Notes: generated by a model not told the origin, from the letters alone. A DNA stretch of 41,444 nucleotides from Candidatus Kaiserbacteria bacterium (GCA_016186765.1 JACPLD010000005.1:79785-121228), one strand, 5' to 3'; shown: positions 16,868 to 39,590, numbered from the stretch's first letter. Translations and numbers: made by a program.

Positions 16868-16972
16868 ACTAGGTATTAGGTGATAGGTATTAGGTGTTAG
16901 ATAAAATCAGAGAATTCCAAGCCTCCCGCTTTGTAGTAACTATAACCTAGAACCTTACACCTAGGACCTATC
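16868..16972. repeat. Inverted pair of heptamer tandem arrays in the ftsE-ftsX spacer
   Basis: 5 x NNTAGGT-like (16868-16902) and 5 x ACCTANN-like (16938-16972). Confidence 0.85.
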
Positions 16973-17651
16973 ATAGAACGTATTTGCCCTGCTTGTCGTC
17001 ACGCACGATACGTCCTTGATCCATCACGACAACACGTCGCCCCACTGAATCGACGACACTCTTGTTATGCGTTGCGAGAAAAACAGTCGTGCCGAGATCA
17101 TTGATCTTCTTCAGGATTTCCACCACGTCGTGCGTATTAATGGGATCGAGGTTGCCTGTCGGCTCGTCGGCAATCAAGACGTCGGGCTGGTTGACGATAG
17201 CACGCGCGATCGCGACCCGCTGCTGCTCGCCACCGGAAAGCTGCGAGGGGAAGCTCCACATCTTCTCGGGAAGCCCCACGAGCTCTAAGACATGCGGCAC
17301 ATCCGCAGCGATATCGTCTTCTGATTTGCCGGCAACCTCGAGCGCGAAAGCAATGTTTTCATACACGGTTTTCGTCGGGAGGAGGCGAAAATCCTGAAAA
17401 ATAGTCCCGATGTTGCGCCGCAGATCGCGCAACTCCTTGCCGCTCATCAACTTGATCTCGCGGGAGCCGAAGTACACGGCGCCCTCCGTGGGCTGTACTT
17501 CGGCGAAGAGCATTTTGAGGAGCGTCGATTTCCCAGCGCCCGAATGACCCACAATGGATACAAACTCCCCCGGATCTATCCCGAGCGTGATGTCTTGGAC
17601 GGCTGCCTGGCCACCGCTGTAGATCTTCGTTACTTTATCGTAGTAAATCAT
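16971..17651 (-). CDS. ftsE: Cell-division ATP-binding protein FtsE
   Basis: [42 protein letters not shown]; start MIYYDKV. Confidence 0.93.
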   Translation of the reverse strand: MIYYDKVTKIYSGGQAAVQDITLGIDPGEFVSIVGHSGAGKSTLLKMLFAEVQPTEGAVYFGSREIKLMSGKELRDLRRNIGTIFQDFRLLPTKTVYENIAFALEVAGKSEDDIAADVPHVLELVGLPEKMWSFPSQLSGGEQQRVAIARAIVNQPDVLIADEPTGNLDPINTHDVVEILKKINDLGTTVFLATHNKSVVDSVGRRVVVMDQGRIVRDDKQGKYVL

Positions 17652-17713
17652 ACAGAAAAGTATCGTGTATGGAGTATCGTGTATGGAGTATAAAAACCGG
17701 AACCTTCGGACAT
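17648..17713 (-). CDS. Putative 21-codon uORF coupled to ftsE
   Basis: TATAAT 7 nt upstream of ATG; MSEGSGFYTPYTILHTRYFSV; TGA overlaps ftsE ATG (ATGA). Confidence 0.35.
   Translation of the reverse strand: MSEGSGFYTPYTILHTRYFSV
17659..17693. repeat. Heptamer array (AGTATCG/TGTATGG alternating)
   Basis: agtatcg tgtatgg agtatcg tgtatgg agtataa. Confidence 0.8.
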
Positions 17714-17740
17714 CCAAAGTATTATATCGCGACGTCCCGA

Positions 17741-18619
17741 CTATCCCAAATTTTTTTCCGCGTCAATGAATGACTGAATGTCGCCATTGAGCACACTCCC
17801 GATATCTCGGCGCTCCTCTCCCGTCCGATGATCCTTCACGAGTTGGTACGGGTGCAGCACGTACGAGCGGATCTGGCTTCCCCACTCGATCTTTGTAGAC
17901 GCGCCAGTCGAAAGTCCGCGCGCTTCACGCTTTTGTGCTTCCTCGCGCATTTGAAATAGCTTCCCCCGCAGCATACGAAGCGCTTTTTCGCGGTTCTGGG
18001 CTTGAGAACGCTCGGAAGTAACATGAACCATGATCCCGGTCGGTCTATGAGTCATTCGCACTGCCGTGTCACGCTTGTTGACATTCTGTCCGCCGGGCCC
18101 GCCAGAGCGCGCGACACTGATCTCCAGCTCACTTTCGGGAACATGCGCTTCTCCCACATCGGGTAGCTCCGGTAAAACCTCGACAAGAGAAAAGCTGGTC
18201 TGCCGCTTTCCTTGCCCAAAGGGCGAGAGGCGTACGAGGCGATGCACTCCCGCCTCATTCTTGAGTGCACCATATACTCCGCTTCCGAGCACCTCGAACG
18301 ATATGCTTCGATAGCCCCCCATCGTGTTCTGATTCGACGACAGCAGTGAAGAGCGCCACCCTTTCGAAGAAACGTATTTCATGTACATTTCGTAGAGCAT
18401 ACGGGAGAAATCCTCCGCATCATCGCCGCCCGCACCCGATACAATGGAAATGATCGCGTTCCCCTTGTCATAACCCGCAGTGCCGCCAAGACGTTGCTTG
18501 AGGTCCTGATACTCTTTGAGCATCGCCTGTGCTTTTTCTTTGTCAGTCCAAAAATCCGCCGCTGCCATTGCGGTCTCGATCTCGCCGATCCGGGCCTCTA
18601 TCGGTTTCTTCGATTGCAT
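17741..18619 (-). CDS. prfB: Peptide chain release factor 2, shortened domain 1, no frameshift site
   Basis: SPF motif (RLVRLSPFG), GGQ (SGGPGGQNVNK), WGSQIRSYVLHPY; about 292 aa from MQSKK. Confidence 0.92.
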   Translation of the reverse strand: MQSKKPIEARIGEIETAMAAADFWTDKEKAQAMLKEYQDLKQRLGGTAGYDKGNAIISIVSGAGGDDAEDFSRMLYEMYMKYVSSKGWRSSLLSSNQNTMGGYRSISFEVLGSGVYGALKNEAGVHRLVRLSPFGQGKRQTSFSLVEVLPELPDVGEAHVPESELEISVARSGGPGGQNVNKRDTAVRMTHRPTGIMVHVTSERSQAQNREKALRMLRGKLFQMREEAQKREARGLSTGASTKIEWGSQIRSYVLHPYQLVKDHRTGEERRDIGSVLNGDIQSFIDAEKNLG

Positions 18620-18623
18620 GTGG

Positions 18624-18700
18624 GGAGTATACCCCGTGAGATAACTCGTGCCAGATAATTTCACTATAGGTTGGAGTTTTTATCTCATGGGGTATACACC
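18624..18700. repeat. 77-bp element with 21-bp terminal inverted repeats over the prfB promoter
   Basis: GGAGTATACCCCGTGAGATAA / TTATCTCATGGGGTATACACC, 19 of 21 complementary. Confidence 0.75.
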
Positions 18701-18714
18701 GGTGCACAAAGTCA

Positions 18715-18745
18715 GCAGGCCGCCGCGTCTGACGCGGCGGCCTGC
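18715..18745. terminator. Perfect GC-rich palindrome, probable terminator
   Basis: GCAGGCCGCCGCGTC-T-GACGCGGCGGCCTGC downstream of the 18774 ORF. Confidence 0.6.
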
Positions 18746-18773
18746 ATTGGTTTCTTCACGGATCACTGACGGA

Positions 18774-19091
18774 TCATTGCATGGGATACACATGCCATGC
18801 CTCATCCGGTATGAGCAAGAACTTCTCCTCGAGCGTGCCATTGGGTAGCGTTCTGCATTCCCAATTCCACAGGAAGTATTTAACTGGATCGCTCTCGTCG
18901 TCTTGCTGATACGTGCAGAAAAGCTCTCCGAGTTCGGGTTTCGTCTCGGCATATCGTTTTGAATCGCCAAATGTTTCCAAGCGATTTTGAGCGATGCCCA
19001 CTAACCCGCTCGGACCCGCAGTCGCAAAGTACAGGTGTGTGACTATCTTTTCCATCGCCTTCATCTCCCGAGGGAACGTCCCGGTTTGCAC
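18774..19091 (-). CDS. Hypothetical protein
   Basis: 105-aa ORF with TATACT 8 nt upstream of GTG; more protein-like than the overlapping 18680-18970 ORF. Confidence 0.5.
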   Translation of the reverse strand: MQTGTFPREMKAMEKIVTHLYFATAGPSGLVGIAQNRLETFGDSKRYAETKPELGELFCTYQQDDESDPVKYFLWNWECRTLPNGTLEEKFLLIPDEAWHVYPMQ

Positions 19092-19158: not shown

Positions 19159-20385
19159 TCAGACGGCAGTAAGCCGGTGCCCGAGCTTCTTCTTTTTCGT
19201 TTTGAGATAGCGCGAATTTATTGAGTTTGGTTTCACCTCGAGAGGAATGCTCTCGAGGATCGAGATTCCATGCCGTACGAGCTCGCGCTCCTTTTTTGGA
19301 TTGTTCGTAAGAAGTCGCACGGAGGAGATCCCTAGATCCTCAAGAATATGGGCTGCGGCCTCATAGGTGCGCGCATCGGCGAGGAATCCGAGCGCGCGGT
19401 TCGCCTCCACCGTGTCGAGTCCCTCATCCTGTAGCGCGTATGCCTTTATCTTGTTGGCAAACCCGATCCCCCTTCCCTCCTGGCTTAAATAGACGATGGC
19501 CCCCGAGCCGTTTTTCTTTATCCGGCGCATGCTCTCTTCGAGCTGCTCACCGCAGTCGCATCGGAGAGAAAGGAGCGTGTCTCCCGTGATGCACTGCGAG
19601 TGAACGCGCACGAGCGCTCCACTCCGGGGTTTGCCAAGAACGAGAGCAGCGTGTTCTCGATCGTCTGAAATAGATCGGTAGACAACGATATCGAATATTC
19701 CGTACTTCGTCGGCAGCCCCGCTCTCGCGAGGCGAACCACATCGGGCTGATGCGGAAGCGGGGAGAGCGGGTGTGTGTGCAGATACCGGACGAGGTCGCG
19801 TATTGTGATGATCCGTATGTTGAGTTTTCGCGCGAGCCGCACTAGTTCATTGCGCTTCGCCATGCGCCCACTTTTCCCAACGATCTCACAGAGAACGCCA
19901 GCAGGCGCATGGCCCCCAAGCCGTGCGAGATCTGCCGCTGCCTCCGTGTGCCCCGCTCGCTCGAGCAGACCTCCATCTCGCGCAACGAGTCCGAAGACGT
20001 GTCCCGGCCGCACCAAATCTTCTGCTTTCGAGCGAGGATTGGTGAGAACGCGAATCGTTCTCTCGCGATCGTGTGCAGAGACACCTGTCGTGATACCACG
20101 CCTGGCATTAACCGATACGGTGAAATTCACGCTCGTCTTCTCGGTGTTCTCGCTCTTCGGGACCATAAGCGAGAGATCGAGCCGCGCGGCCTGCGCGCGT
20201 GTGATCGCTGTGCACACGATTCCCCCGCCCTCTCTGATCATCGTGGTGATCGCTTTTGGCGTCGCGGCATCGGCAGGAATGTAGAGGTCGGCTTCGTTCT
20301 CGCGACCCGGATCGTCGATGATGAGCATCTTTCCTCTCCGAACGTCGGCGATCGCTTCTTCAACGGTACTGAATGTTTTCCTCAT
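19159..20385 (-). CDS. ribBA: Bifunctional DHBP synthase / GTP cyclohydrolase II
   Basis: DDPGRENEAD, RPGHVF, RAGHTE; RVHSQCITGD...RCDC, QEGRGIG, LLTNNP. Confidence 0.96.
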   Translation of the reverse strand: MRKTFSTVEEAIADVRRGKMLIIDDPGRENEADLYIPADAATPKAITTMIREGGGIVCTAITRAQAARLDLSLMVPKSENTEKTSVNFTVSVNARRGITTGVSAHDRERTIRVLTNPRSKAEDLVRPGHVFGLVARDGGLLERAGHTEAAADLARLGGHAPAGVLCEIVGKSGRMAKRNELVRLARKLNIRIITIRDLVRYLHTHPLSPLPHQPDVVRLARAGLPTKYGIFDIVVYRSISDDREHAALVLGKPRSGALVRVHSQCITGDTLLSLRCDCGEQLEESMRRIKKNGSGAIVYLSQEGRGIGFANKIKAYALQDEGLDTVEANRALGFLADARTYEAAAHILEDLGISSVRLLTNNPKKERELVRHGISILESIPLEVKPNSINSRYLKTKKKKLGHRLTAV

Positions 20386-20825
20386 AGTTCCGACATGAGC
20401 TCGATCATCGAAAGCGCCGATTCTGCCGCCTCGATGCCCTTGTTCTCCTTTTTTCTCGTCGCGCGCTCGAGCGCGTCCTTTAGTCGATAGACCGCGAGCA
20501 CTTCAAAAATGACGGGGATCTCGTACTCGAGGGAGACATCCATGCACCCACGTGCACACTCATTGGCAATTTGTTCAAAGTGATAGGTTTTTCCTTTCAC
20601 GATGGCACCGAATGCTATCAAGGCGTCGTATCTGCGCTTCTTTGCCAACTTCTTCGCGACAAGCGGGATCTCCAGAGAGCCGGGCACCCTGAACACATCG
20701 ATGTTTCCGACCTTCACGCCACGGCGCTTCAGCGCCGCAATGCATCGCTTTTCAAGCTCGCTCGTGACATCTTCGCGAAACGAGCTCCCGATGATGCCGA
20801 TATGTATGTCTTTGATTCTTTTCAT
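20382..20825 (-). CDS. ribH: 6,7-dimethyl-8-ribityllumazine synthase
   Basis: VPGSLEIP, GAIVKGKTYHFE, NKGIEAA. Confidence 0.95.
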   Translation of the reverse strand: MKRIKDIHIGIIGSSFREDVTSELEKRCIAALKRRGVKVGNIDVFRVPGSLEIPLVAKKLAKKRRYDALIAFGAIVKGKTYHFEQIANECARGCMDVSLEYEIPVIFEVLAVYRLKDALERATRKKENKGIEAAESALSMIELMSEL

Positions 20826-21403
20826 GCTCTTCTTGTGAGTTTCTCGATGTACTTCGCAAGTACGTCAACTTCGATATTCGCTTTGTCGCCAACTTTCACA
20901 GTGCGAAACGAGGTGCTCTCCCACGTATGCGGAATGATGCCGACGGTTACATACTTCCTTCCCGCCTTTACGACGGTAAGCGCGACGCCATTGACCGCGA
21001 TCGATCCCTTCTCGACCACATACTTCGAAAGCGTGCGAGGGATAGAAAATTTCAGCATGCGGCTGTTTCCCTTTCGCACGACGCTCACAAGTTTTCCAAC
21101 TCCATCTATATGACCCTGAACGATGTGGCCGGAAAGAAATGATATAGGCGTAGCAGGAAGCTCGAGGTTGACATAAGCGCCTCGCGGGAGATCGGGAAGT
21201 GTTGTTCGATGTGCTGTCTCGGGCATGATATCCGCCGAAAAAGAGCTCCCGTTTTTTGCGACGACCGTGAGACATGCGCCGTCAATCCCGATACTGTCCC
21301 CACGCTTGAGCCGTCGCAGAAACCTTTTGTTTGTGCTGATCGAAATCCCCGATCGTGTGCGGGTCGCAACAGTCCCCATTTCCGTGATAATGCCAGTAAA
21401 CAT
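20822..21403 (-). CDS. ribE: Riboflavin synthase alpha chain (RibE/RibC)
   Basis: MFTGII start, GDSIGIDGACLTV, GHIVQGHIDG, KGSIAVNGVALTV, NIEVD. Confidence 0.96.
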   Translation of the reverse strand: MFTGIITEMGTVATRTRSGISISTNKRFLRRLKRGDSIGIDGACLTVVAKNGSSFSADIMPETAHRTTLPDLPRGAYVNLELPATPISFLSGHIVQGHIDGVGKLVSVVRKGNSRMLKFSIPRTLSKYVVEKGSIAVNGVALTVVKAGRKYVTVGIIPHTWESTSFRTVKVGDKANIEVDVLAKYIEKLTRRA

Positions 21404-21425
21404 AAAACCCCGTTCGTTCGGGGTT
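21398..21425 (-). terminator. Riboswitch terminator hairpin overlapping the ribE start
   Basis: AACCCCG-AACGAA-CGGGGTT then TTATGTTT. Confidence 0.7.
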
Positions 21426-21457
21426 GCATCCATTCACCCAAAAAAAATGGGCGGACT

Positions 21458-21651
21458 TTCCTTCTTTCCCTACTACGCTCGCCTGCGGCGAGCTTCGAAG
21501 GGTCCTGCATAGCTTTATGCGACGCAGGACATCCCGACTATACGGTCGGTCGCGGGATTGAACCGCAGTCGTGTCCCGACATATGCCAGGACTCGCGGAC
21601 TCGCCTTGCGGCTTTACCGCCGATTGGGACTCACACCCAACCCCGAAGGAA
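21458..21651 (-). ncRNA. FMN (RFN) riboswitch with an internal insertion
   Basis: CTTCGGGG-TTGGGTGTGAGTCCCAA-TCGGCGGT...GTCCGCGA...GCGGTTCAATCCCGC-GACCGAC-CGTATAGTCG-GGATG; P1 TTCCTTC/GAAGGAA; upstream of rib operon. Confidence 0.9.
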
Positions 21652-21680
21652 CAGGGGAAGTGTACCACACTTTATTCGTG

Positions 21681-25948: not shown

Positions 25949-28334
<2,386 letters not shown>

Positions 28335-28335
<1 letters not shown>

Positions 28336-28793
28336 CAATACCTCAGGTCGACCGAGCGCTCGAGTGCATGGGAGCTTGTTTCGATGTTTGCGCAGGTCGT
28401 GTTGTAGCCGTCCACGTGAATGATCGTGAATGGGTGCGTGGAGCGCTTTGTGACATTCACCTTCGCGCAGTAGCCATTCGGCTCGTACTCGAATGTAGAG
28501 ACGATTGCGCCCTCGACGCTCTGGGCGCTCGTCGTCTTTTGTTCGTTGTTGCACGTAAGCTGCTTAGAGGTAGGCGTCGTCGTGGGAAAGAGTTCGAATC
28601 GCAAATCCCAGTAGAGCGCGCACTCGGCGCCGCTGTCGGCTGCATAGAAAGCAAACTGCGAATCGCGGCCAACAGAGGAGAGCGTGAGTTCCTTCTGCGC
28701 AAGCGCGAAGATTGCTGTGCCAAGAGAAAGCACAACCGAGGCGATGAGCGCCGCGAGCATGAGCGTAAACCCCCTGGATTCCTTCTTTTTCAT
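28335..28793 (-). CDS. PilX-like minor pilin (no Glu5)
   Basis: MKKKESRG|FTLMLAAL...; AFYAADSGAEC PilX-type motif. Confidence 0.8.
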
Positions 28794-28795
28794 AC

Positions 28796-30054: not shown

Positions 30055-30055
30055 A

Positions 30056-30679: not shown

Positions 30680-31464
30680 ACAAAAATGCAGCTTGCGATG
30701 AGAAATGGCCCGAACGGTATCTCGCTCTTCATTGTATACGACTGCGACGGAGCAATATGCGCTATTCCCCAGTCTGAGAGAAAGCGGGCGATCGCGGGAA
30801 GCGGCAGGAGTATTAAAAGCGACACGACTGCGCCGAGGACGAATGCGAACATGACCGCAATGAATCCGTAGAGGGGACCCAAGAGGTAGCCAATGCCGAG
30901 CGCAAGCTTGACGTCGCCAAGTCCCATCCAGCGCCCTTTTGAAACAAACCACACCAGAAAGAGTAAGACGGCAGCCGCAGGCCCGGAAAGAAGCACTACG
31001 GCGAGGTCGAACTGCGGAAGCGAGGTAAGGAACTGCGATACGAACGCAAGCGCGATACATGCGTAGACCCACGTGTCCGGAATGTACGTCGTTCGAAGGT
31101 CATAGACGGCTATCGCGATCAAAAGAGAGGCGATTGTAAGATAATCAGCAAGCAGAAGAACGCCAATAGGAAATGGAAAATGCTGTGCCGCACTGTACAG
31201 GGGGCTGAAGAAAGCAAAAATAACACCCGTGACACCTTCGACAATCGGATACTGCAGGGAAATGGCACTCCCGCACGCTCTACAGCGACCACGCAAGAGA
31301 ATCCACGAGAAGATCGGTATGTTGTCATACCAAGAGACTAGTTGGCCACAGTGTGGACATGTGCTTCTCCCAGAGAGCGGAGCTCTCCCACGCCGCAGGA
31401 CGAGAACGTTAAGAAAACTTCCAACGATGAGACCGAATACACCGAATACGAAGGCAGTCACCAA
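30634..31464 (-). CDS. pilD: Prepilin peptidase
   Basis: GSFLNV, CPHC...CRAC, AVYD, MGLGDVKL, IPFGPFL. Confidence 0.95.
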   Translation of the reverse strand: MVTAFVFGVFGLIVGSFLNVLVLRRGRAPLSGRSTCPHCGQLVSWYDNIPIFSWILLRGRCRACGSAISLQYPIVEGVTGVIFAFFSPLYSAAQHFPFPIGVLLLADYLTIASLLIAIAVYDLRTTYIPDTWVYACIALAFVSQFLTSLPQFDLAVVLLSGPAAAVLLFLVWFVSKGRWMGLGDVKLALGIGYLLGPLYGFIAVMFAFVLGAVVSLLILLPLPAIARFLSDWGIAHIAPSQSYTMKSEIPFGPFLIASCIFVWFTQIYGIPLPLFP

Positions 31465-31489
31465 GTAAGTATAAGCGCTAGATGCGTGA

Positions 31490-32005
31490 CTAACTCTTTA
31501 CGTCGTAGCAGAGTGTGCCCGTATCACTCGCATTGCACTTGCCGGAATCCGCACCATTAAATCCCCCTGCCGCGGCCGCAGCGCTAAAACAGCCTGCTGC
31601 AGCGGAAGTGCAGTCGGCATCGCTGTTCTTTGCGCTGTTGCCGGAATCTTCGAGCGATGCCCCAAGGTGGTAGTTGGTGCCATTCGTCGCATACGCATAC
31701 GAGTAGTCGCGCTGATCACTCGGGTCATGCGGAATGACAGCGAGAAAGCCGTCGCTCACGAGCGTGGAGGAGTCGAGGTCGGTCACCTGCGGATACGCGT
31801 TGTACTTGTCGTAGTAGAGCTCGAGTGCAAGCTGCAACTGCCGTGTGTCACTGACGCGCCGCGCATCTCTCCCCTTCTTCCTCGCGCTGTTTAAGGAGGC
31901 GAGCACGACAGAAGAAAGAATACCGATGATCGCTATCACGACGAGCAATTCGATCAGTGTGAAACCATTCGATTGACTCAGGGCAAGGCCACGAGAATCC
32001 TTCAT
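31490..32005 (-). CDS. Major type IV pilin / GspG-like pilin
   Basis: G|FTLIELLVVIAIIGILSSVVLASL...ARKKGRDARR...LELYY; C-terminal Cys residues. Confidence 0.9.
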   Translation of the reverse strand: MKDSRGLALSQSNGFTLIELLVVIAIIGILSSVVLASLNSARKKGRDARRVSDTRQLQLALELYYDKYNAYPQVTDLDSSTLVSDGFLAVIPHDPSDQRDYSYAYATNGTNYHLGASLEDSGNSAKNSDADCTSAAAGCFSAAAAAGGFNGADSGKCNASDTGTLCYDVKS

Positions 32006-32055
32006 GCGCTCATTATAGCAGACCAAGCGCCCTTGAAGCGCCCGTGTGGATAGTC

Positions 32056-33264
32056 CTAGAAACCCGACGCGATGTTGTAGATGGGGAGAAGCACAGAGGC
32101 AAGGAGCATCGCGACGCCGACGGCAAGCGTCACGATCATAAAGGGCTCGATCAGACCCACGAGAGTGTCCACCGCATTGTTAACCTCGCGGCGATAGAAC
32201 CGCGCCATCGTCTCAAGCACGTGCGCCATGTTACCGGTCTCTTCCCCGATCTTGACCATAGCGACGACGATACCGGGAATTTCCGGATGCTTGCGAAACG
32301 CTTCAGAGACAGGAAGACCTCCCTTTACGTCGGCTGCGGCGGCTACCAAGACTTTTTCATAGACAGCGTCCCCTACGACAGAGCCGGTTATCTCAAGGCC
32401 GCGAAGAATCTGCACGCCGCTTTTGAGCATCGTCGAGAGGTTATCGGCGACACGCGAAAGAAAGAGTTTCTTGTAGATCTCTCCGATCGCGGGAATTTGC
32501 ATGCGCGCGCGGCTGAACATCTCGCGCCCAACGGGCGTGCGGTAAAAGCGGTAGAGGAAGACGCCCGCGATCAAAAGCAGGATGACGATGAGGAGAATGT
32601 AGCGTGTGAGAAAATTGCTGATGCCGATCACAATCTTCGTGTAGATGGGAATATTCTGCCCGATCTCTTCGAGGAGCGTCGCGAGGTTCGGAATCACGAG
32701 TGTCATCATCAATGCCATAACGACTACGAATGTCGTTGTGATGAATGCAGGATAGATGAGCGCGTTGCGCGCTTTTTGTGTGATCTCGTAGTTGCGATCG
32801 AGGTAATCGGCAAGAAACGAGAAAGTTTCATCAAGTTTTCCAGCCTCCTCGCCCGCGCGAACCATGTTGACGTAAAACGGCGAGAACACTTCGGGATGCC
32901 GGGAGAGTGCTGCCGATATCAAAGAACCACTTTGGATGTCGTTTGCGACCGCGGTAAGCTTCTCGGCAAGCTTCGGCGTTCGTGCCTCGGAGGCGAGGAG
33001 CCGAAAGGCGTGAAGAGCCGATACCTGCGCTTCGAAGAGCGTCGTTATTTGGCGGCTCACCATCACGATGTCCGCGTTGGTGATGCGATCGAAGAGAGAG
33101 ATGCGTGTCCACGCTGTTGTCTTTTCCTGTTGCGGCGCTATCGAGGATACGACCAGCCCTCTTCTCTGGAGGGCAGTGATCGCGACATCAATATTGACCG
33201 CGTCGATCGTGCCTTGCCGCTCGGCGCCCTCCTGGTCGACCGCACGGTATGTAAATAAAGCCAT
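32056..33264 (-). CDS. pilC: Type IV pilus platform protein PilC/GspF
   Basis: Two GspF repeats: MVRAGEEAGKL...ALIYP; MVKIGEETG...IEPFMIV. Confidence 0.93.
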   Translation of the reverse strand: MALFTYRAVDQEGAERQGTIDAVNIDVAITALQRRGLVVSSIAPQQEKTTAWTRISLFDRITNADIVMVSRQITTLFEAQVSALHAFRLLASEARTPKLAEKLTAVANDIQSGSLISAALSRHPEVFSPFYVNMVRAGEEAGKLDETFSFLADYLDRNYEITQKARNALIYPAFITTTFVVVMALMMTLVIPNLATLLEEIGQNIPIYTKIVIGISNFLTRYILLIVILLLIAGVFLYRFYRTPVGREMFSRARMQIPAIGEIYKKLFLSRVADNLSTMLKSGVQILRGLEITGSVVGDAVYEKVLVAAAADVKGGLPVSEAFRKHPEIPGIVVAMVKIGEETGNMAHVLETMARFYRREVNNAVDTLVGLIEPFMIVTLAVGVAMLLASVLLPIYNIASGF

Positions 33265-33267
33265 AGA

Positions 33268-33351
33268 TTAAAGAACAGAGAACAGAGAACAGAGAACAGT
33301 CGATGAATTGGCATTTCTCTGTTTTCTGTTTTCTGTTTTCTGTTTTCTCAT
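33268..33351 (-). CDS. Putative 27-codon bridging mini-ORF between pilT and pilC
   Basis: ATG overlaps pilT TGA; MRKQKTENRKQRNANSSTVLCSLFSVL; TAA 3 nt before pilC ATG. Confidence 0.3.
   Translation of the reverse strand: MRKQKTENRKQRNANSSTVLCSLFSVL
33272..33348. repeat. Inverted pair of heptamer arrays in the pilT-pilC spacer
   Basis: (AGAACAG)x4 at 33272-33299 and (GTTTTCT)x4 at 33321-33348. Confidence 0.9.
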
Positions 33352-34415
33352 AGCAATTTCTGCAGCACGTTCGGGTTGAGTGAGAACTGGTAGGCGCTCT
33401 CGACCGTGATCTCTCCTCGCGCCACCAATTCCGCAAGCGAGCGATTCATGTCTATCATGCCCTCGCTTGAGCCGGTTTCGATAATAGTAGGAAGCTCATG
33501 GGTACGACGCTCGCGGACGAGATTCGCGACCGCCTTGTTGTTGATGAGGAGTTCGTACGCCGGGATAAGACCGCCAGAGACACGCGGGACGAGACGCTGG
33601 GAGAAAATCCCTGCGAGCGAGGCTGCAAGCTGCAGGCGGATCTGGTCCTGCTGCGAGGCAGGAAACGTGTCGATGATTCGATCGACGGTTTGCGCGGCAT
33701 CATTCGTATGCATCGTCGAGAAGACAAGGTGGCCGGTTTCCGCGGCAGTCACGGCAGCAGCCATCGTTTCCGGCCCGCGCATCTCTCCCACCAAGAGCAC
33801 GTCGATGTCTTGCCTGAAGGCGGCTTGGAGTGCCGTCGCAAAATCCTTTGTGTCGATGCGGACTTCCCGCTGATCGATGAGTGACTGCTTCGGCTCGAAC
33901 ACGTACTCAATCGGATCTTCTATCGTTACGATATGCTCCATTCGCTCTGTGTTAATGAGCTCGATGAGAGAGGCGAGCGTCGTCGTCTTTCCCTGCCCCA
34001 CGGGCCCCACGACAAGGAAAAATCCCTGCGTCTTCCTGGCAAAGGTCGTGAGAACATCCGGAAGATTCAACTCCTGCACGGAGCGAATCGTTTTCGGGAT
34101 GAGGCGGAGCGCGATCGAGATCGAACCGCGTTGAAAGAAGACGTTCCCGCGGAACCGATTCCGATCCTCGCTCTCGTAGGCAAAATCGAGCTCTTTTTCC
34201 GCAAGAAATCGCCTCTCCTGCTCGGGCGTGACGAGTGTCTTCAAAAAGCCTAGTGTATCCTCGGGCAAAAGTACCGGTTCTTTGAGCATCGGTGTGAGCA
34301 CTCCCGACGTGCGGATCGTGGGATGCGCACCCGCCGAGAAGTGCAGATCACTCCCGCCCTCGTGCGAAAGCACGTTGATGTATTTTTTCAAAGTCGCACC
34401 ATACTCGATCGCCAT
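33348..34415 (-). CDS. pilT: Type IV pilus retraction ATPase PilT
   Basis: SDLH, GPVGQGKTTT, TIEDPIE, AFRQDIDVLLVGEMR, AETGHLVFSTMHT; start MAIEYG. Confidence 0.93.
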   Translation of the reverse strand: MAIEYGATLKKYINVLSHEGGSDLHFSAGAHPTIRTSGVLTPMLKEPVLLPEDTLGFLKTLVTPEQERRFLAEKELDFAYESEDRNRFRGNVFFQRGSISIALRLIPKTIRSVQELNLPDVLTTFARKTQGFFLVVGPVGQGKTTTLASLIELINTERMEHIVTIEDPIEYVFEPKQSLIDQREVRIDTKDFATALQAAFRQDIDVLLVGEMRGPETMAAAVTAAETGHLVFSTMHTNDAAQTVDRIIDTFPASQQDQIRLQLAASLAGIFSQRLVPRVSGGLIPAYELLINNKAVANLVRERRTHELPTIIETGSSEGMIDMNRSLAELVARGEITVESAYQFSLNPNVLQKLL

Positions 34416-34443
34416 AGGATGTATTGTATCGTACTCTTGGCAC

Positions 34444-34839
34444 TCATTTTTTCCTTTTTGCGATCTCCTCCGCGACTGCTTGAACAACTTCGGAGGGGAT
34501 CATACTTGCCTTCACGATGTAGCGATGCACACCAAGCGATTCTGCTTTCGACCTCTCTGCCGGGTCGCTCATGTTCGTAAGCGCGATGAGGGTAGCTCCG
34601 GGAGCCACGTGGCTCTGTGAGAGCTCATCGAGAAACGAGAAGCCGTCGCGCTCGGGCATCGTGAGATCAAAGACGATAGCATCAGGCGCAAAGCCGGCTT
34701 TAAGTGCGGCAAGTGCTTCAGCGACAGAAAGACACGTCTGTACGGTATAGCCAGCAGAGGTAAACTTCATGCCGTACATATCCGCCAAAAACTTGTCGTC
34801 ATCCACAAAGAGCACATTTCCTTTTGTCGCCTCGTTCAT
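34444..34839 (-). CDS. Single-domain response regulator (CheY-like)
   Basis: VLFVDDD, VFDLTMP, ALTN, IVK all intact; no output domain. Confidence 0.9.
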   Translation of the reverse strand: MNEATKGNVLFVDDDKFLADMYGMKFTSAGYTVQTCLSVAEALAALKAGFAPDAIVFDLTMPERDGFSFLDELSQSHVAPGATLIALTNMSDPAERSKAESLGVHRYIVKASMIPSEVVQAVAEEIAKRKK

Positions 34840-36542
34840 ATAGTTTCGCCTTGTTCCTTCTGCTCTGTCTTCTCCTTCGCGGCGGATTCTTCCGCCTCAT
34901 TTTCTCCCAAGAGAAGCGCGGAGAGCGTGTTGACCTCGGAGTACGGAACGAGCTTATTGAACGCCTTCACCAGCGCATCTTCTCGCATGGTGAGCATGCC
35001 GCCCTCTCGCGCAGTCTCCCAGAGTCTCGACTCCACCGGATTGTCGAGAATGATACGCTCGATATCCCGCGACATCTCCAGCACTTCAAAAACGGCCATG
35101 CGACCCCGCAGACCGGTGGGCGATGTGGCTGTCCGCTTCGGCTCCCAGACTTTCTGCGGTATCTTGAAGCGATACTTCGCGGCAAGCGACGAAAGGTCGG
35201 CTTCAATCGCCTTCCGGTCGCTCGCAGAGAGGTCTACTTCCTCGCCTCCCTCTTCCGCAAGCGTTCGCACGAGACGCTGCGCGATGGAGAGGATCAGCAC
35301 AGGTGAGATGAGGTAGGGCTCTACGCCCATGTCGATGAGGCGCGGGATGGTGCCGACGGCGTCGTTTGTATGAATCGTCGAGAGCACGAGATGGCCTGTT
35401 AGAGCCGCCTGAATCGCTAATTTTGCTGTTTCGCCATCGCGTATCTCGCCGACCATGATGACATCTGGGTCCTGACGCAAGGTTGTGCGCAAGCCATTGG
35501 CGAAACTATAGCCGATCTCGGGACGCACTTGCGATTGCGTGACCCCTTCGATGAAGTATTCGATCGGGTCCTCAAGCGAGAGCACATTTTTGTGTTCGCG
35601 GTCTACCTCCGAGAGCATTGAGTAGAGCGTCGTCGATTTACCGCTCCCCGTGGGACCCGAGATGAGGATGAGCCCGTGGGGCCTTGTGATGCCATTGCGG
35701 ATCAACTGGAGATTGCGCTCCGTGAGGCCTATTCTTTCGAGGGGAATGAAGCCTTGATCGCGATCGAGGATACGGATCTCGACCTTCTCTCCGTAGTACG
35801 AAGGAAAGGTGGAGACGCGGAAGTCGATCGCACGCCCGTCGATTGAAGCCGAGAAGCGCCCATCTTGCGGCTTTCGTTGCTCGTCGAGCCGAATAGAGGC
35901 AAGTACCTTGATACGCGCGATCAAGGGACGGAGCGTCGTAGAAGGCAGGACGACGCTCGTGTGCAGGTCGCCGTCGACGCGGTAGCGTACGCGCACGCCG
36001 TGCGCTTGCGGTTCGATATGGACGTCGGAAGCCTTGCCATCGATCGCATAGCGGAGAATGGTCGATACGATCTTGATGGTCGGCGCATCTTCCTGAATAT
36101 TCTTCTCGAGGCTCGTATCTGTCTGCGCAAGCGTTGTGTCGAGATCTAAGGGTGCAGCTTCTTCGGTGCTGCGCGAGAGCTTCTGCTCGGTCTGCAGATC
36201 TGTGATCGCGCGATCGACCTCTCCGCCGAGCCCTTTATACATTCGCAAGATACTTTCAAAGTCCGCTTGCGATATCTGGTAAACCTTAAACGGCACCCCC
36301 GTGCCGCGCGCGATAAAATTCAAGGCATCGAACCCGCCGATGTCGTCGGGGTCGACCATACCCACCTCCAAGATCCCGTCCACCACCCCAAGCGGCGCAA
36401 GCTTGTAGTGCTCGGCCGACTCCTGCGGAATGTAACGCAGCACTTCATAAGGAACTTTCGAACCCCCGAGGCTCCGCGGCGGAGCTCCGAGCGCTGGGGC
36501 AGGCGCTCCCCCGACCGTGTTCTGTGTTGCGGAGGTGGGCAT
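34836..36542 (-). CDS. pilB: Type IV pilus assembly ATPase PilB/GspE
   Basis: ASDVHIEP, PQDGR, GPTGSGKSTT, LRQDPDVIMVGEIRD, TGHLVLSTIH, QRLVR. Confidence 0.94.
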   Translation of the reverse strand: MPTSATQNTVGGAPAPALGAPPRSLGGSKVPYEVLRYIPQESAEHYKLAPLGVVDGILEVGMVDPDDIGGFDALNFIARGTGVPFKVYQISQADFESILRMYKGLGGEVDRAITDLQTEQKLSRSTEEAAPLDLDTTLAQTDTSLEKNIQEDAPTIKIVSTILRYAIDGKASDVHIEPQAHGVRVRYRVDGDLHTSVVLPSTTLRPLIARIKVLASIRLDEQRKPQDGRFSASIDGRAIDFRVSTFPSYYGEKVEIRILDRDQGFIPLERIGLTERNLQLIRNGITRPHGLILISGPTGSGKSTTLYSMLSEVDREHKNVLSLEDPIEYFIEGVTQSQVRPEIGYSFANGLRTTLRQDPDVIMVGEIRDGETAKLAIQAALTGHLVLSTIHTNDAVGTIPRLIDMGVEPYLISPVLILSIAQRLVRTLAEEGGEEVDLSASDRKAIEADLSSLAAKYRFKIPQKVWEPKRTATSPTGLRGRMAVFEVLEMSRDIERIILDNPVESRLWETAREGGMLTMREDALVKAFNKLVPYSEVNTLSALLLGENEAEESAAKEKTEQKEQGETI

Positions 36543-36545
36543 AGG

Positions 36546-36890
36546 TCAGCGCGTCGGGAAGAGTTCCCTCCCCTGCGACGTACTCGTGGGACGGTACGAG
36601 GTCGGCGCAAACGGATTTGGCCGCCCGACCGGCTCAGGGATGATCTGCGTCCCGAAATCTTGCAGCAGCTGGAAGGCCGGATCGGAGAATACCGTTCCGG
36701 AAAGGGAGACGGCGCGCAGCTGTAGGAGCGTGCCGACGAGCTCTTTGTCGACACTGCCGCCTCCCGCGGCTTCCGTCGTCAGGAGCTCACCTTCTTGCGG
36801 CGCATCGGAGAGAAACCACCATGCGCCTATTGCCACAAGGACCGAAGCGCCAACCAAGAGATACCATTTATATTGTGAGAAAAGCTGCAT
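36546..36890 (-). CDS. Small membrane-anchored pilus accessory protein (PilP position)
   Basis: N-terminal TM, GRPNPFAP motif, downstream of pilO. Confidence 0.65.
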   Translation of the reverse strand: MQLFSQYKWYLLVGASVLVAIGAWWFLSDAPQEGELLTTEAAGGGSVDKELVGTLLQLRAVSLSGTVFSDPAFQLLQDFGTQIIPEPVGRPNPFAPTSYRPTSTSQGRELFPTR

Positions 36891-36894
36891 ACTA

Positions 36895-37464
36895 CTACTT
36901 TAGCCAGTACGTCCTAATGGTGATGTCGTAGCGATATCGGGGCTCCTGCCCCGAGCTATTGTCGCTTCCCCCTTGCAGGCTCAAGCTGACGGGGTCGACG
37001 ATGCGGAGGCTTTGCCCAAGCTCTTCGATGAATCCCCTGAAATTTGCATAGGTGCCATGCGTTGTGAACTTGAGCGTGAGCGAATTGAACTTCTGCCTCC
37101 CGCCTCCGATTGCACCGATCGCTCCTTTTTCCGAGTTCGCCGTTGGGTTCGAGAGCGTGACGTTCTGTAGTGCCATGCCATGCCTGCCTGCGAGGCTGTC
37201 GAGATCGAGGACAAGCCGCACGTTGTCGACATGATCCGGAAGCAGCTTGTGGAGCCGGTCGATGTCGATGGGGTTGAACGCGTTGTAGCGCGAGAGAAGC
37301 GACTGCTTGAGAGCCTGCAGCTCGGCCGCTTTCTTGAGTGCCTGGTCGTATTCCCCAATCTCTGTTTCGAGCGCGAGAACTCTTTCATACGTCGGCTGCG
37401 TATAGAAGAAGAGCACGCTCCCCGCTATCGCTAGTGCCGCTATCGAAAGGACGATCCTTATCAT
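36895..37464 (-). CDS. pilO: PilO-like alignment protein
   Basis: TM, coiled coil, LLPDHVD...GTYANFRGFIEELGQSLRIVD...TYWLK. Confidence 0.8.
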   Translation of the reverse strand: MIRIVLSIAALAIAGSVLFFYTQPTYERVLALETEIGEYDQALKKAAELQALKQSLLSRYNAFNPIDIDRLHKLLPDHVDNVRLVLDLDSLAGRHGMALQNVTLSNPTANSEKGAIGAIGGGRQKFNSLTLKFTTHGTYANFRGFIEELGQSLRIVDPVSLSLQGGSDNSSGQEPRYRYDITIRTYWLK

Positions 37465-38159
37465 AGGTTATTCTCCTCCTCTCCGAGGGATGCCCCTCCT
37501 TCGGGAATCGGAGAGATAGAAGGCGCACCGAAAGGAAATGTTTGTTGGGGCGCCGCGGGAGCGGGGGGAACGACGAGGAGCTGCGCGAAATTTATCGCAA
37601 GAGGATCCACACTCGCAGAAAGGCTGAAGTGCACGCCGTCAATCTCGCGGTTGATGTTCGAAAAAACGGGGCTTGTGAACATGCCATCTTCGGAGAAAAG
37701 GTCGGCCTGTAGCGCGATGCCATTCACGCTTCCCGCGACGCCGTCCATCTGTACCGCCATGTTCTCAGCATCCGCTACCTCAAAGTCGAGCGAGGTGAAG
37801 CCGACAGAGCCTATCGTGTTTCGTTCGAGCATTTCAAAGATCGCCGACGGCGCGATGTGCTTTTGGAGTATCTCGCTCGCCGCCTGCATGCGGTCGTCGA
37901 GGCGCGTCAGCTCCGCAATGAGCGATGGCTCGAATGCCGCCTTCGCACGCTCGAGCTGCTCGATCTTCGAGGCGGCGCTTGCCGCAAGATACTCGCGGTA
38001 GAGAAAGATGCCGATCGCAAGCGCGACCGATGCGACTAAAAGCACGATGGCGATGAGTGCGAAGAGATCAGCAAGACCCTTGCCGCTGCGGCGCACTGGG
38101 CCGGCAGCGACAGGCGCCTCGTGGGGAATGAAACTCTGCGGTACGCTCGATGTGGGCAT
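37461..38159 (-). CDS. pilN: PilN-like alignment protein
   Basis: TM, coiled coil, ferredoxin-like C-terminus; located between pilM and pilO. Confidence 0.7.
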   Translation of the reverse strand: MPTSSVPQSFIPHEAPVAAGPVRRSGKGLADLFALIAIVLLVASVALAIGIFLYREYLAASAASKIEQLERAKAAFEPSLIAELTRLDDRMQAASEILQKHIAPSAIFEMLERNTIGSVGFTSLDFEVADAENMAVQMDGVAGSVNGIALQADLFSEDGMFTSPVFSNINREIDGVHFSLSASVDPLAINFAQLLVVPPAPAAPQQTFPFGAPSISPIPEGGASLGEEENNL

Positions 38160-38166
38160 ACATTGC

Positions 38167-39315
38167 TTAGGTACTCTTCAATTTACGAAGTATGAGGCCT
38201 GCCGAAACTGAAAATCCCGGACCTATCTCTCGCAGCACGTCCGCAAGAAATGCCGGTGCCTCCGTCCGGGCAAAAGGGTCCGCGATGACAACGTCGGCGC
38301 TCAAGGATGACTTCGCCTCCCCTGAAAGGCCGGGGAGCGATGCACCGCCGCCAGTCAAAACGACGCGCGACACATTCTTGTTGTATCGCTGCCCGTAGCT
38401 CAATAGTACCCGATTCACCTCCGAAAAGAGACGCGAGAGTGTTGATAACAGCGCAGATTTGATGCGGTCGTTCTCGTCGGCCGAATAGGCGGGAGAATCC
38501 TCCAAGCCGCGCTCGCGCTTCACGCGCTCCGCTTTCTCAAAGTCCCAGTTGAGCGAGCGCGCTAAGGTCTCCGACATCTGCTGTCCTCCCATTGAGACGA
38601 GATGCGTGAGCCGCACGATGCCGCGCTCAACGATGTACATTTTGGTCGTCGAAGCGCCGATGTCAACGACTAAGACTGGCGCGATGCCACGCGAAAGTGA
38701 GGAGCGTATTGCACCGAAGATCTCGATCTCGTAAAACTCCACATGAATGCCCGCCGTCGAGGCGACCGTCTGGAAACTATTCACGACGTCGTTGTGAATA
38801 GCAACGAGGAGCACCTCTACACCCCTAGGCTTTTGCGCCGGGGCCTGCACACGGTCGAAGGCGCTCTTCTCTTCCTCGTCTTCCGGAATAACGAACCAGT
38901 CGAGCGTCACCTCCGAGACGGGAACTGGAATGTATTTGCGCGCTTCGATCGGGACCATGCGCTTCAAGGTTCCCTCGTCTACCTTCGGGAACTCGAGCAC
39001 GGAGATGAGGCTTGAGGAAAATGGGATAGAAAGGCCGGCCGAACGAGCCGTTACGTTCGCCTCCTTCATCAAATCCATAAGTGCTTCAGCTGTCTTTTCA
39101 GGCGTAAGCTTCACCGCCTTGCCGACCGGTTGTCCGCCGTAGGGGCCGAGCGCGATTTCGCCGTAGGTTTCGAGGATCGCCGCACCATGCGAGGCACGCA
39201 TCTGCACGACTTTCACCGAGCTCGTGCCGATGTCGATGCCTAAGAAACTTCCTTCTGCGCCGCCGCCGAATGCGGAAGAAATTTTTTCCGTGATACTGCC
39301 TAGCGAGAACGCCAT
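38167..39315 (-). CDS. pilM: Type IV pilus assembly protein PilM
   Basis: GIDIGTSSVK, VDIGASTT, VLTGGGASLPG actin-like motifs. Confidence 0.93.
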   Translation of the reverse strand: MAFSLGSITEKISSAFGGGAEGSFLGIDIGTSSVKVVQMRASHGAAILETYGEIALGPYGGQPVGKAVKLTPEKTAEALMDLMKEANVTARSAGLSIPFSSSLISVLEFPKVDEGTLKRMVPIEARKYIPVPVSEVTLDWFVIPEDEEEKSAFDRVQAPAQKPRGVEVLLVAIHNDVVNSFQTVASTAGIHVEFYEIEIFGAIRSSLSRGIAPVLVVDIGASTTKMYIVERGIVRLTHLVSMGGQQMSETLARSLNWDFEKAERVKRERGLEDSPAYSADENDRIKSALLSTLSRLFSEVNRVLLSYGQRYNKNVSRVVLTGGGASLPGLSGEAKSSLSADVVIADPFARTEAPAFLADVLREIGPGFSVSAGLILRKLKST

Positions 39316-39522
39316 CGCGGGTAATTATAGCCTAACGAAGCGAGAGAAGTGTGAGCTTGTTCACACTTCCGAGCGAGTGACGGCTAAACGAGCGAAGCGA
39401 CTATATCACCCCTCTTTCACGCTATTTGGTCAATCTTCGCCACTTGGCGGGTATTGCCGTGCCGTAGCCGCCGCATCGCCAGAAATCTCATCCATCACTA
39501 CATCAAAAACTATATCAAAAAT

Positions 39523-39548
39523 TCGGCTCCGCCGGAGGGCGGAGCCGA
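39523..39548 (-). terminator. Intrinsic terminator of the 40040 gene
   Basis: TCGGCTCCGCC-GGAG-GGCGGAGCCGA followed by ATTTTTG on the minus strand. Confidence 0.7.
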
Positions 39549-39590
39549 GGACAAAGGAATCAAGGACAAGTGCCAAGATTCCAGTGCCAA
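39549..39590. repeat. Degenerate heptamer array between stop codon and terminator
   Basis: Minus strand ttggcac tggaatc ttggcac ttgtcct tgattcc tttgtcc. Confidence 0.45.

Follow-up and report, generated by a model that had tools for sequence, protein, structure and literature searches.

We analysed a 41,444-nt stretch of a Candidatus Kaiserbacteria genome (GCA_016186765.1, JACPLD010000005.1:79785-121228; the window, meaning the whole stretch) that carries tandem arrays of 7-nt units, often as complementary pairs, at gene junctions and in the leaders of type IV pilins. We refer to two complementary arrays with their intervening loop as a cassette, and number the array-bearing sites of the window as loci 1-6. 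The closest relatives of the PilC protein in the window belong to metagenome-assembled genomes (MAGs) named Candidatus Kaiserbacteria or Paceibacteria, and a first-pass annotation, made from the sequence alone, had rightly assigned the organism to the candidate phyla radiation (CPR). Nearly all window genes are on the minus strand. The genes around the arrays, as identified by Pfam, are the following.

15937-16863, minus strand: FtsX
16971-17651, minus strand: FtsE
17741-18664, minus strand: RF2
26239-28251, minus strand: DNA ligase (ligA)
28796-29452, minus strand: N_methyl pilin
29449-30054, minus strand: N_methyl pilin
30056-30679, minus strand: N_methyl pilin
30634-31464, minus strand: prepilin peptidase (Peptidase_A24)
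31490-32005, minus strand: N_methyl pilin
32056-33264, minus strand: PilC
33348-34415, minus strand: PilT

Pfam also finds a receiver-domain protein, PilB, PilO and PilM in the window. The cleavage/methylation motif G/F(T/S)L(I/V)E, a leader and a prepilin peptidase, which together define type IV prepilins, are all present.

Period-7 arrays and initiation signals in the window

Tandem Repeats Finder (TRF) detected eight period-7 arrays in the window, at 16870-16900, 17659-17691, 28258-28284, 29352-29382, 29412-29444, 30027-30052, 33272-33299 and 33318-33348. In 100 dinucleotide-preserving shuffles of the window, the mean was 0.84 and the maximum in any shuffle was 5, and periods other than 7 occurred near expectation. 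These are head-to-tail units in at least three copies and above chance, as in long simple sequence repeats (LSSRs) and the short tandemly repeated repetitive sequences (STRRs). The second arms of loci 1 and 3 (16936-16970 and 28291-28332) are too degenerate for TRF and were recognized by inspection and from predicted folds. At least four unrelated units occur among the six loci, and dozens occur in relatives; only a YAG/CTR core is common to them. The individual features are listed below.

16936-16970, minus strand: 5' arm of locus 1, directly after the ftsE stop (16971-16973), with units TAGGTCC, TAGGTGT, AAGGTTC, TAGGTTA and TAGTTAC
16896-16935, minus strand: loop of locus 1, 40 nt, containing GGGAGG and GAATTC
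16868-16895, minus strand: 3' arm of locus 1, with units ACCTAAT, ACCTATC, ACCTAAT and ACCTAGT, ending 4 nt before the ftsX ATG (16863)
16897-16974, minus strand: 25-codon open reading frame (ORF) of locus 1, MIGPRCKVLGYSYYKAGGLEFSDFI, whose ATG overlaps the ftsE stop (ATGA)
17659-17691, minus strand: array of locus 2, unpaired, reading (ACTCCATACACGAT)x2.4 on the gene strand
17648-17713, minus strand: 21-codon upstream ORF of locus 2, MSEGSGFYTPYTILHTRYFSV, which holds the array and whose TGA overlaps the ftsE ATG at 17651 (ATGA)
28256-28332, minus strand: cassette of locus 3, between a pilin stop (28335-28337) and the ligA ATG (28251)
29342-29452, minus strand: 37-codon prepilin leader of locus 4, MKDQVSGFGCQVSGKRPNSWFAFPYNLKPKTYNLHAG, followed by FTLVE; it starts at an ATG that shares bases with the TGA of the pilin upstream
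30007-30054, minus strand: 16-codon prepilin leader of locus 5, MAKGKRQKARVRNERG, followed by FTLVE; its ATG is at 30054
33268-33351, minus strand: relay mini-ORF of locus 6, MRKQKTENRKQRNANSSTVLCSLFSVL and a stop; its ATG at 33351 overlaps the pilT TGA (ATGA)
39523-39548, minus strand: ordinary intrinsic terminator with an 11-bp GC stem and a T run

The first-pass annotation had proposed period-7 arrays at seven loci, all at gene boundaries or in cleaved leaders. Six of the seven are borne out, their placement is as described, and the excess over shuffled DNA that it named as a check is found in the window, with period 7 also dominant in relatives. The seventh, at 39549-39590, yields no period-7 array by TRF even at score 30 and adjoins the terminator at 39523-39548. 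A period of 7 throughout describes the arrays overall and fails at locus 2, which is better read as 2.4 perfect copies of a 14-mer (100% matches, compared with 73% as a 7-mer). The four inverted pairs can all be seen, with unequal strengths: the regions 29340-29460 (locus 4) and 33255-33360 (locus 6) are strong, and 28245-28345 (locus 3) is weak.

Locus 1 (16855-16985) is predicted to fold at -35.3 kcal/mol (z -2.1). The third unit of its 5' arm has AAG where TAG would be in frame with the ORF starting at 16974. That ORF runs through the 5' arm and on through the loop and ends 33 nt short of the ftsX ATG, making it a partial relay. At locus 2, where the fold has a z of -1.4, the ATG of the 21-codon ORF is preceded by a TATAAT box at 7 nt. 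Locus 3 has six AGGnnnn units as its 5' arm (28291-28332), a 7-nt loop and a 3' arm (28256-28283) of ACCTAAA, ACCTAAA, ACCTGTA and ACCTATT; its fold has a z of -1.4, all frames contain stops, and ligA has no relay ORF. Both arms of locus 4 (5' arm about 29411-29445, 3' arm about 29349-29382) are in frame within the leader, and the fold reaches -44.7 kcal/mol (z -5.2). The pilin encoded there has the cleavage motif G/FTLVETLVA, and its N_methyl domain lies at residues 35-55, after a 34-aa extension. Locus 5 consists of (GCAAAAG)x3.7 at 30027-30052, which is coding and has no partner (fold z +0.7; N_methyl at residues 12-35). The relay ORF of locus 6 reads through a 5' arm of (GAAAACA)x4 (33318-33348), the loop and a 3' arm of (CTGTTCT)x4 (33272-33299) to a TAA located 3 nt before the pilC ATG (33264). 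Predicted folding of this locus gives -32.5 kcal/mol (z -5.5) for the gene strand; the opposite strand folds better still, at -42.6 kcal/mol (z -7.4).

A TAnnnT box occurs 5-8 nt upstream of 13 of the 30 window starts inspected. Most internal genes overlap or abut the preceding stop, and motifs resembling a Shine-Dalgarno (SD) sequence at a working distance are rare. Boxes of this type (TATAAT, TAGAAT, TAGAGT, TACAAT) with no SD precede the minus-strand starts at 13096, 14158, 15866, 17713, 22542, 24508, 32005, 34415, 39315 and 40524. This pattern suggests that first genes are transcribed as leaderless mRNAs, and the organism appears to rely on leaderless starts together with stop-start coupling (termination-reinitiation). 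Because the internal cistrons seem, judging from the sequence, to depend on termination-reinitiation, inserts at their junctions would have to stay readable.

Conventional signals do not coincide with the arrays. A terminator scan of 26000-40000, a range that covers loci 3-6 and leaves loci 1 and 2 outside, found none overlapping those four loci and one convincing terminator, that at 39523-39548. Rfam 15 at gathering score reports seven tRNAs and an FMN riboswitch in the window and matches nothing at any array. A promoter role was rejected, as promoter-like sites are no more numerous than in shuffles. AGGT/ACCT arms as mimics of SD and anti-SD sequences fit only one unit family, most units being unrelated. 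At 28252-28262 (minus strand) the last unit of the locus 3 3' arm places a TAACCT 7 nt upstream of the ligA ATG; given its likeness to the -10 boxes found at starts of the leaderless type, the arm may also serve as a promoter element.

Reading frames through the cassettes of relatives

The arrays occur across the lineage. In 1.31 Mb around pilC from 80 reference genomes, TRF found 263 period-7 arrays, compared with 110 for the next commonest period, and 0.61 Mb of metagenome contigs yielded 148 compared with 43; about 12 of these contigs duplicate MAG loci, the near-identical MAG/metagenome pairs being the same assemblies. Hairpin-forming array pairs were found in 27 of 81 sequences of the first set (57 pairs) and in 25 of 80 of the second (37 pairs), and array load ranged from 0 to 29 per locus. 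The cassettes have a median size of 88 nt and a median loop of 31 nt (range 6-68 nt), and array length peaks at 4 units. A typical cassette has the form (YAG-N4)x4-5, loop, (N4-CTR)x4-5, and follows directly on an ATG that shares bases with the stop of the upstream gene (ATGA). The arrangement had been called genome-wide, which 41 kb cannot show. In relatives, the arrays concentrate in the type IV pilus cluster, with foci among the minor-pilin genes and between pilT and pilC; 13 kb there hold 50 arrays, compared with 9 in 8.2 kb of flanks. The two ftsE sites of the window indicate that they are not exclusive to pilus genes. In L041 (the same locus as L162), nearly every pilM-pilN-pilO-pilB-pilT junction within 300-6450 has a longer, AT-rich cassette of 150-250 nt, with A/C-rich heptamers in the 5' arms (CCAAGCA, AAGCACC) and G/T-rich ones in the 3' arms (TTTGGAA).

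The first-pass annotation had taken the arrays for mainly non-coding elements of gene junctions with a role in mRNA processing or subunit stoichiometry. Most are instead read by ribosomes, in pilin leaders or in relay mini-ORFs that are kept open, and in this they depart from the non-coding location typical of LSSRs. On the gene strand, 41 of 57 pairs of the first set have a frame free of stops from one end of the cassette to the other, compared with 14 of 57 on the opposite strand; in the second set the figures are 24 of 37 and 8 of 37. Among all 299 pilin N-termini of the first set, 44 have an array within 60 nt upstream. The pilin frame is open through 41 of these 44 cassettes, whereas the other two frames are open through 12 and 14; stop codons number 8 in the pilin frame and 63 and 77 in the others. 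The second set gives the same picture (24 of 25 open in the pilin frame; 4 stops as opposed to 34 and 45). An in-frame ATG lies upstream of the arrays in 39 of the 44. These counts point clearly to purifying selection on one frame through the cassettes, which would produce long prepilin leaders and relay mini-ORFs.

Array-bearing prepilin leaders are 16-81 aa long (median about 35); in the close relatives L079 and L004, the leaders of orthologous pilins measure 4-7 aa. Known prepilin leaders range up to about 30 aa; those of 37 aa, and up to 81 aa in L033, where the arrays have expanded to 10-13 units, exceed that. Reading the arrays as untranslated spacers, with pilins starting at the ATGs at 29349 and 30017, was rejected, both ATGs being out of frame with G/FTLVE; the in-frame ATGs are those at 29452 and 30054. 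A separate gene call agrees, giving 218 aa for the locus 4 pilin and 201 aa for that of locus 5. Arrays of this kind cause gene callers to misplace pilin starts and short-read contigs to break.

In most genomes, the pilT stop lies 2-10 nt from the pilC ATG or overlaps it, which is the ancestral state of the junction. In 28 genomes, about one in six, a cassette of 78-133 nt stands there, with unit sequences that differ even between relatives whose PilC proteins are 91% identical; at least eight unit families have been gained at this one junction. Defining a relay ORF as an ATG-started frame of 10-60 codons that ends -4 to +6 nt from the pilC ATG, we found one in 23 of the 28 cassettes, compared with 9% of shuffled-upstream controls. 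These ORFs span 15-42 codons and end on or beside the downstream ATG. In two of the five cassettes with no relay ORF, the sequences read as having a stop 13 nt upstream of the pilC ATG.

Two relay designs can be distinguished. In the first, the ORF starts on the ATGA overlap and the whole cassette is read. In the second, with a 5' arm of (TAGnnCG)n, the pilT stop is itself the first unit, the arm is untranslatable, and the ORF starts at an ATG in the loop (..TCATGCA..). The family of the second type retains its arms, a 5-bp CGTAG/CTACG core and the loop ATG in genomes whose pilC is 70-84% identical to that of the window. In predicted folds of 26 pilT/pilC cassettes, the pilT stop is paired in 19 and the 10 nt before the pilC ATG in 17.

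Open frames also bear on phase variation, in which a one-unit slip would shift the leader or relay frame and toggle minor pilins or pilC. The unit is not a multiple of 3, so gain or loss of one unit shifts the frame and gives a built-in potential for on/off switching. As at contingency loci, the type IV pilin leaders place a non-triplet simple sequence repeat (SSR) in the 5' coding part of genes for surface filament subunits, here in several paralogues, and out-of-frame TAGs are so abundant that a one-unit slip would terminate translation at once. A one-unit difference does occur, between L094 and L095, the L033 arrays have expanded, and at hmw a change in repeat number requires the RNA hairpin and RNase III (PMC12721329). 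Against this, the arrays are short (4-5 units), often imperfect and nearly constant in copy number, the great majority of cassettes are in the ON frame in consensus assemblies (41 of 44 and 24 of 25), and ftsE and ftsX are unlikely targets. Population variation found no backing in an exact-protein look-up, which returned only two contigs, L081 and L082 (Logan, SRR12113422 and SRR12113433), each from a further sample of the window's strain and each matching the window over 7.3 kb without a difference. We consider phase switching quite improbable as an account of the cassettes. Both contigs stop precisely where the 5' array of pilT/pilC begins; since short-read unitigs break there, surveys of fragmented assemblies under-count such arrays.

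Arm composition, folding and turnover

The two arms pair through a core of 4-5 bp every 7 nt, with 2-nt internal loops between cores. The 5' arm unit contains AG in 46 of 50 pairs, preceded by C (20) or T (19), while the remaining four positions vary freely; CT is present in the 3' arm unit of 42 of 50, followed by A (28) or G (11). The second set agrees (AG in 30 of 32 5' arms and CT in 27 of 32 3' arms). The reverse arrangement is rare, with CT in only 10 of 50 5' arms; because the element is palindromic, the YAG-then-CTR order is identical on both strands. Within translated arms, every TAG lies out of frame, and in-frame positions carry CAG (24), AAG (5) or GAG (2). AG is thus kept at 31 of 36 positions where an in-frame TAG has been corrected, which indicates a constraint on a paired or recognized core beyond the avoidance of stops. 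Providing stops in all frames was rejected as the purpose of TAG heptamers: it would apply only to the untranslated TAG-type subset, translated arms having dropped the in-frame TAG.

Another alternative is protein binding, in which an oligomeric RNA-binding protein would bind YAG triplets with 4-nt spacers, block the hairpin and regulate the downstream cistron. HutP binds UAG-N4-UAG-N4-UAG, and TRAP binds (G/U)AG repeats. The cassettes resemble NAG-repeat operators: three or more regularly spaced NAG triplets stand on the 5' side of the hairpin, which is always where the YAG array lies, and AG persists in the frame-corrected units. However, YAG and CTR conservation could simply reflect the paired core, as the arms are complementary; arrays of 4-5 units do not fit a binding surface with 3- or 6-fold symmetry; and some families (L041) have no CT in the 3' arm. 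No HutP- or TRAP-like protein is among the window proteins as annotated with Pfam, no search aimed at one having been made. Protein binding as the primary explanation seems very improbable to us.

Hairpin pairing is not stronger on the mRNA strand. One interpretation of the better opposite-strand folds is stop avoidance: replacing TAG by CAG puts a C.A mismatch into the mRNA hairpin, whereas the antisense strand can still form a G.U pair there. A replication- or transcription-associated C-to-T bias was rejected as the cause because it would probably act in the wrong direction, the gene strand being G-rich. G-quadruplexes, as proposed for Xanthomonas, were likewise rejected: most units (such as GAAAACA, AGTTTAC, AGCGTAT and CAGTTGT) have no G tract, GG occurs in only 13 of 50 5'-arm units, and the four phased tracts of at least 3 G that mark GGGNATC-type repeats are not a feature of these arrays.

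The cassettes turn over rapidly, and their units evolve in concert. Compared with L001, all four units of the window's 5' arm at pilT/pilC have undergone the same G-to-A change, uncompensated in the 3' arm, and L094 and L095 differ by having 5 and 6 TAG units in an untranslated arm. Such concerted changes and one-unit differences fit the signatures of slippage, in keeping with the slippage-type generating process proposed in the first-pass annotation. Whole arms are also replaced. L002 and L083 have flanks that are 92% identical, and the arm families differ at all three orthologous pilin leaders while the loop centre remains alignable. Conversely, the arm pair AGTTTAC/CTGTCAA encloses unrelated loops in three genomes, one of which has it at pilT/pilC and the other two in pilin leaders. 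An (A)GAATTC (EcoRI-type palindrome) followed by ..CATTT(C/T)CC is seen in the loops at 16908-16913 and 29396-29401 and in leader loops of L002 and L083; this common motif may mark shared ancestry of one cassette family.

Known mobile elements do not account for these patterns. Filled and empty junctions show no visible target-site duplication, and no transposase is encoded in the window. Miniature inverted-repeat transposable elements were rejected on the missing target duplication, the unrelated loops of cassettes that share arms, and the lack of conserved copies. Repetitive extragenic palindromes (REPs) and their paired form (REPINs) were rejected because cassettes differ within a genome, the arms are tandem heptamers and not palindromes, and no REP-associated tyrosine transposase (RAYT) is found among the window proteins. 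Recombination between pilin paralogues, with hairpin- or cruciform-prone cassettes as hotspots for exchange of leaders or segments, is compatible with some observations: a leader cassette (QVSG..YNLKP..) sits on a minor pilin in the window and on a major-type pilin in L002, the same arm family recurs at different genes, and paralogous pilins within a genome share cassettes (L048, L068). It leaves the relay ORFs, the ftsE/ftsX sites and the frame conservation unexplained, and the conserved FTLIE-coding segment could serve exchange equally well; we find it scarcely credible as the general explanation.

The main alternative is that the cassettes are a tolerated by-product, or selfish DNA, produced by a lineage-specific tendency to heptamer slippage and snap-back (template-switch) copying, with no function and surviving where they are harmless, in cleaved leaders and frame-bridged junctions. 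Among the long SSRs of prokaryotes, heptanucleotides are described as the most frequent class, and polymerase slippage has been put forward as their origin (Mrazek 2007, as cited in PMC4679880 and PMC4692102). Patchy presence among close relatives, the replacement of arms between L002 and L083, the variable loops and the weaker mRNA-strand hairpin all favour this view, as does the abundance of heptamer arrays with arbitrary units in unrelated phage contigs. Among IMG/VR viral contigs (37-70% GC), (CAGGTGT)3-4 occurs in 27 and (CGTAGnn)4 in 19, and control heptamers of the same composition with no AG or CT occur in 19 and 13 (13-27 contigs per 20-mer overall). A universal preference for the CAGGTGT unit is rejected by these similar frequencies (27 compared with 19 and 13), and heptamer arrays as such are common beyond the lineage. 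An inverted partner within 110 nt accompanies 10 of 46 YAG-type arrays in IMG/VR, compared with 1 of 32 control arrays. Some phage-classified contigs of 57-63% GC (among L163-L208, for example L169, L173, L179, L184 and L189) carry (CAGGTGT)x4, a loop and (ACACCTG)x4, an architecture that is the same as that of the Kaiserbacteria cassettes.

Several observations are at odds with a pure by-product. The TAG-type pilT/pilC family persists, with its arms, core and loop ATG, at 70-84% pilC identity; AG is retained when TAG must go; and the chirality, with the YAG arm first and the CTR arm second, is strong. The gain of at least eight unit families at the same pilT/pilC junction and an array length that peaks at 4 units instead of decaying also speak against it. 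Patchiness and turnover thus pull towards the by-product explanation and persistence, AG retention and chirality away from it, and we regard it as a distinct possibility that is nonetheless on the unlikely side.

Proposed ribosome hand-over and comparison with known repeats

The explanation that we tentatively prefer, with a probability of about 0.45, is that slippage-born heptamer cassettes fold over the stop/start region and gate the hand-over of ribosomes between cistrons. The cassettes sit where a ribosome would leave one cistron and enter the next, after an ATGA and before a prepilin cleavage site or the next ATG. Their units may arise and homogenize by slipped-strand duplication, often seeded at a TAG stop codon, and the second arm may originate as an inverted copy through template switching. 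In the mRNA, the arms would pair as 5-bp helices with 2-nt internal loops, bringing the upstream stop and the downstream start to the base of the hairpin. Ribosomes that come from the upstream gene or travel along the relay ORF could then open the hairpin, and in this way the cassette would gate or tune how much the next cistron (mainly a minor-pilin gene, pilC, ftsX or ftsE) is translated.

Several findings weigh against this proposal, in which the effect on coupling is deduced from sequence features. The cassettes are dispensable, as two thirds of the related genomes have no hairpin pairs in this region, including L079, whose pilC is 91% identical, and their loops are poorly conserved. In 42 of 57 pairs the mRNA strand forms the weaker hairpin of the two strands (Wilcoxon p = 3e-4), and maximal mRNA pairing is therefore not the property under selection. 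The pilC ATG itself is paired in only 14 of 26 predicted folds. Loci 2 and 5 have neither a partner arm nor significant structure, and relay ORFs do not serve ligA or fully bridge the gap to ftsX, where the frame stops 33 nt short.

A stronger version of ribosome hand-over would make the cassettes a dedicated, lineage-specific device of a bacterium without SD-driven internal initiation, in which an oligomeric RNA-binding protein or a nuclease binds the YAG arrays and a switch composed of hairpin, loop ATG and relay ORF sets pilus stoichiometry. Examples of such a factor would be a HutP- or TRAP-like binder, or an endonuclease that cuts the loop 5' of the ATG to give a leaderless mRNA. We judge this version rather unlikely. 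Should the cassettes tune or switch coupling, they would reveal the means by which an uncultivated CPR bacterium with few SD motifs regulates its pilus, the main tool of this bacterium for attachment and DNA uptake.

The first-pass annotation named the heptamer STRRs of cyanobacteria and was not aware of a mechanism for such an arrangement in CPR. Arrays of about four heptamers between aligned genes have already been described (PMC4692102, PMC2700814, PMC4679880), and the cassettes belong to this known, unexplained class of heptanucleotide repeats; their new aspects are the locus-specific units, the two arms that are both arrays, the chirality and the translation. Heptamer arrays, known from cyanobacteria, Xanthomonas, Geobacter, Beggiatoaceae and Haemophilus, have no accepted function apart from that at hmw. 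To this class the present data add three testable facts, namely placement at stop-start junctions, apparent purifying selection on one frame, and the YAG-then-CTR chirality. We did not find a description of such cassettes in CPR bacteria in the literature.

In Xanthomonas and Nostoc, GGGAATC and GGGGA(C/T)T arrays favour a length of four units and occupy the gaps between aligned ORFs, in some cases as inverted copies and with differences from one close relative to the next (Rehm 2015, PMC4692102), and Geobacter metallireducens has families of 4-5 heptamers (PMC2700814). The Kaiserbacteria arrays share with these and with the STRRs the 7-nt tandem units, the preference for about four copies, the location near stops and starts of co-oriented genes, the occasional inverted stem-loops and the strong variation between close relatives. 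They differ in that the other genomes use one or a few units throughout (STRR1-3, GGGAATC), whereas here nearly every locus has its own unit. G-quadruplexes have been invoked for the Xanthomonas-type repeats, whereas most Kaiserbacteria units are without G tracts. Those repeats are also under-represented in coding sequence, while the Kaiserbacteria arrays are mostly translated, in a CPR host with apparently leaderless and coupled initiation.

Marine Beggiatoaceae have TAACTGA arrays just upstream of starts in genes without a canonical ribosome-binding site (MacGregor 2015, PMC4679880). These are likewise sets of 2-6 heptamers within a few nucleotides of start codons, for which a translational role was proposed, but they comprise a single unit with stops in two frames, include one indirect repeat in 170 sets, and are not described as translated. 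In Haemophilus influenzae hmw, (ATCTTTC)n forms one arm of a hairpin in the 5' untranslated region (5' UTR), RNase III cleaves it, and the hairpin controls expression (PMC12721329). Both there, upstream of the surface-adhesin genes hmw1A and hmw2A, and in Kaiserbacteria (loci 4 and 6 and the pairs of relatives), a heptamer array is one arm of a long predicted mRNA hairpin. The hmw arrays have at least 11 units in an untranslated 5' UTR, a non-repetitive G-rich partner arm and demonstrated RNase III cleavage; those of Kaiserbacteria, known from sequence, have 4-5 units on both arms and lie within translated sequence.

More distant parallels exist. The CTCTT repeats of Neisseria opa are also non-triplet units in the cleaved N-terminal leader of paralogous surface proteins, but they form long, visibly polymorphic tracts with no complementary second array. 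Rickettsia palindromic elements (RPEs) and the REPIN/RAYT system likewise involve palindromic inserts of about 100 nt, RPEs being in frame and translated and REPINs having two inverted arms; these elements are near-identical copies spread through a genome with no heptamer periodicity, and REPs carry GTAG and depend on RAYT, features that the cassettes do not show. HutP and TRAP sites have fixed-spacing NAG triplets (UAG-N4 of HutP being a period of 7) in the 5' part of a regulatory hairpin; they contain 3+3 or 11 triplets, lie in untranslated leader RNAs and control transcription termination.

Four further features of the window were noted. The FMN riboswitch (21517-21654, minus strand; 68.7 bits, just over the gathering score) lies upstream of ribE-ribH-ribBA (19159-21433). 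A 92-aa ORF at 11314-11592 (minus strand) with a LAGLIDADG_3/WhiA-like match adjoins a tRNA at 11239-11310 and is possibly a remnant of a homing endonuclease or a WhiA fragment. The RF2 ORF (17741-18664, minus strand) matches the PCRF profile only from position 87 on; its N-terminal part may sit in another frame upstream (compare 18680-18970), as with the programmed +1 frameshift common in prfB. Finally, a period-21 repeat at 1457-1562 (5 copies, 70% matches) lies in ORF 196-1971 (minus strand), which encodes a surface-type protein with PG_binding_1 and IPT/TIG domains; it is an in-frame 7-aa repeat, unrelated to the heptamer arrays.

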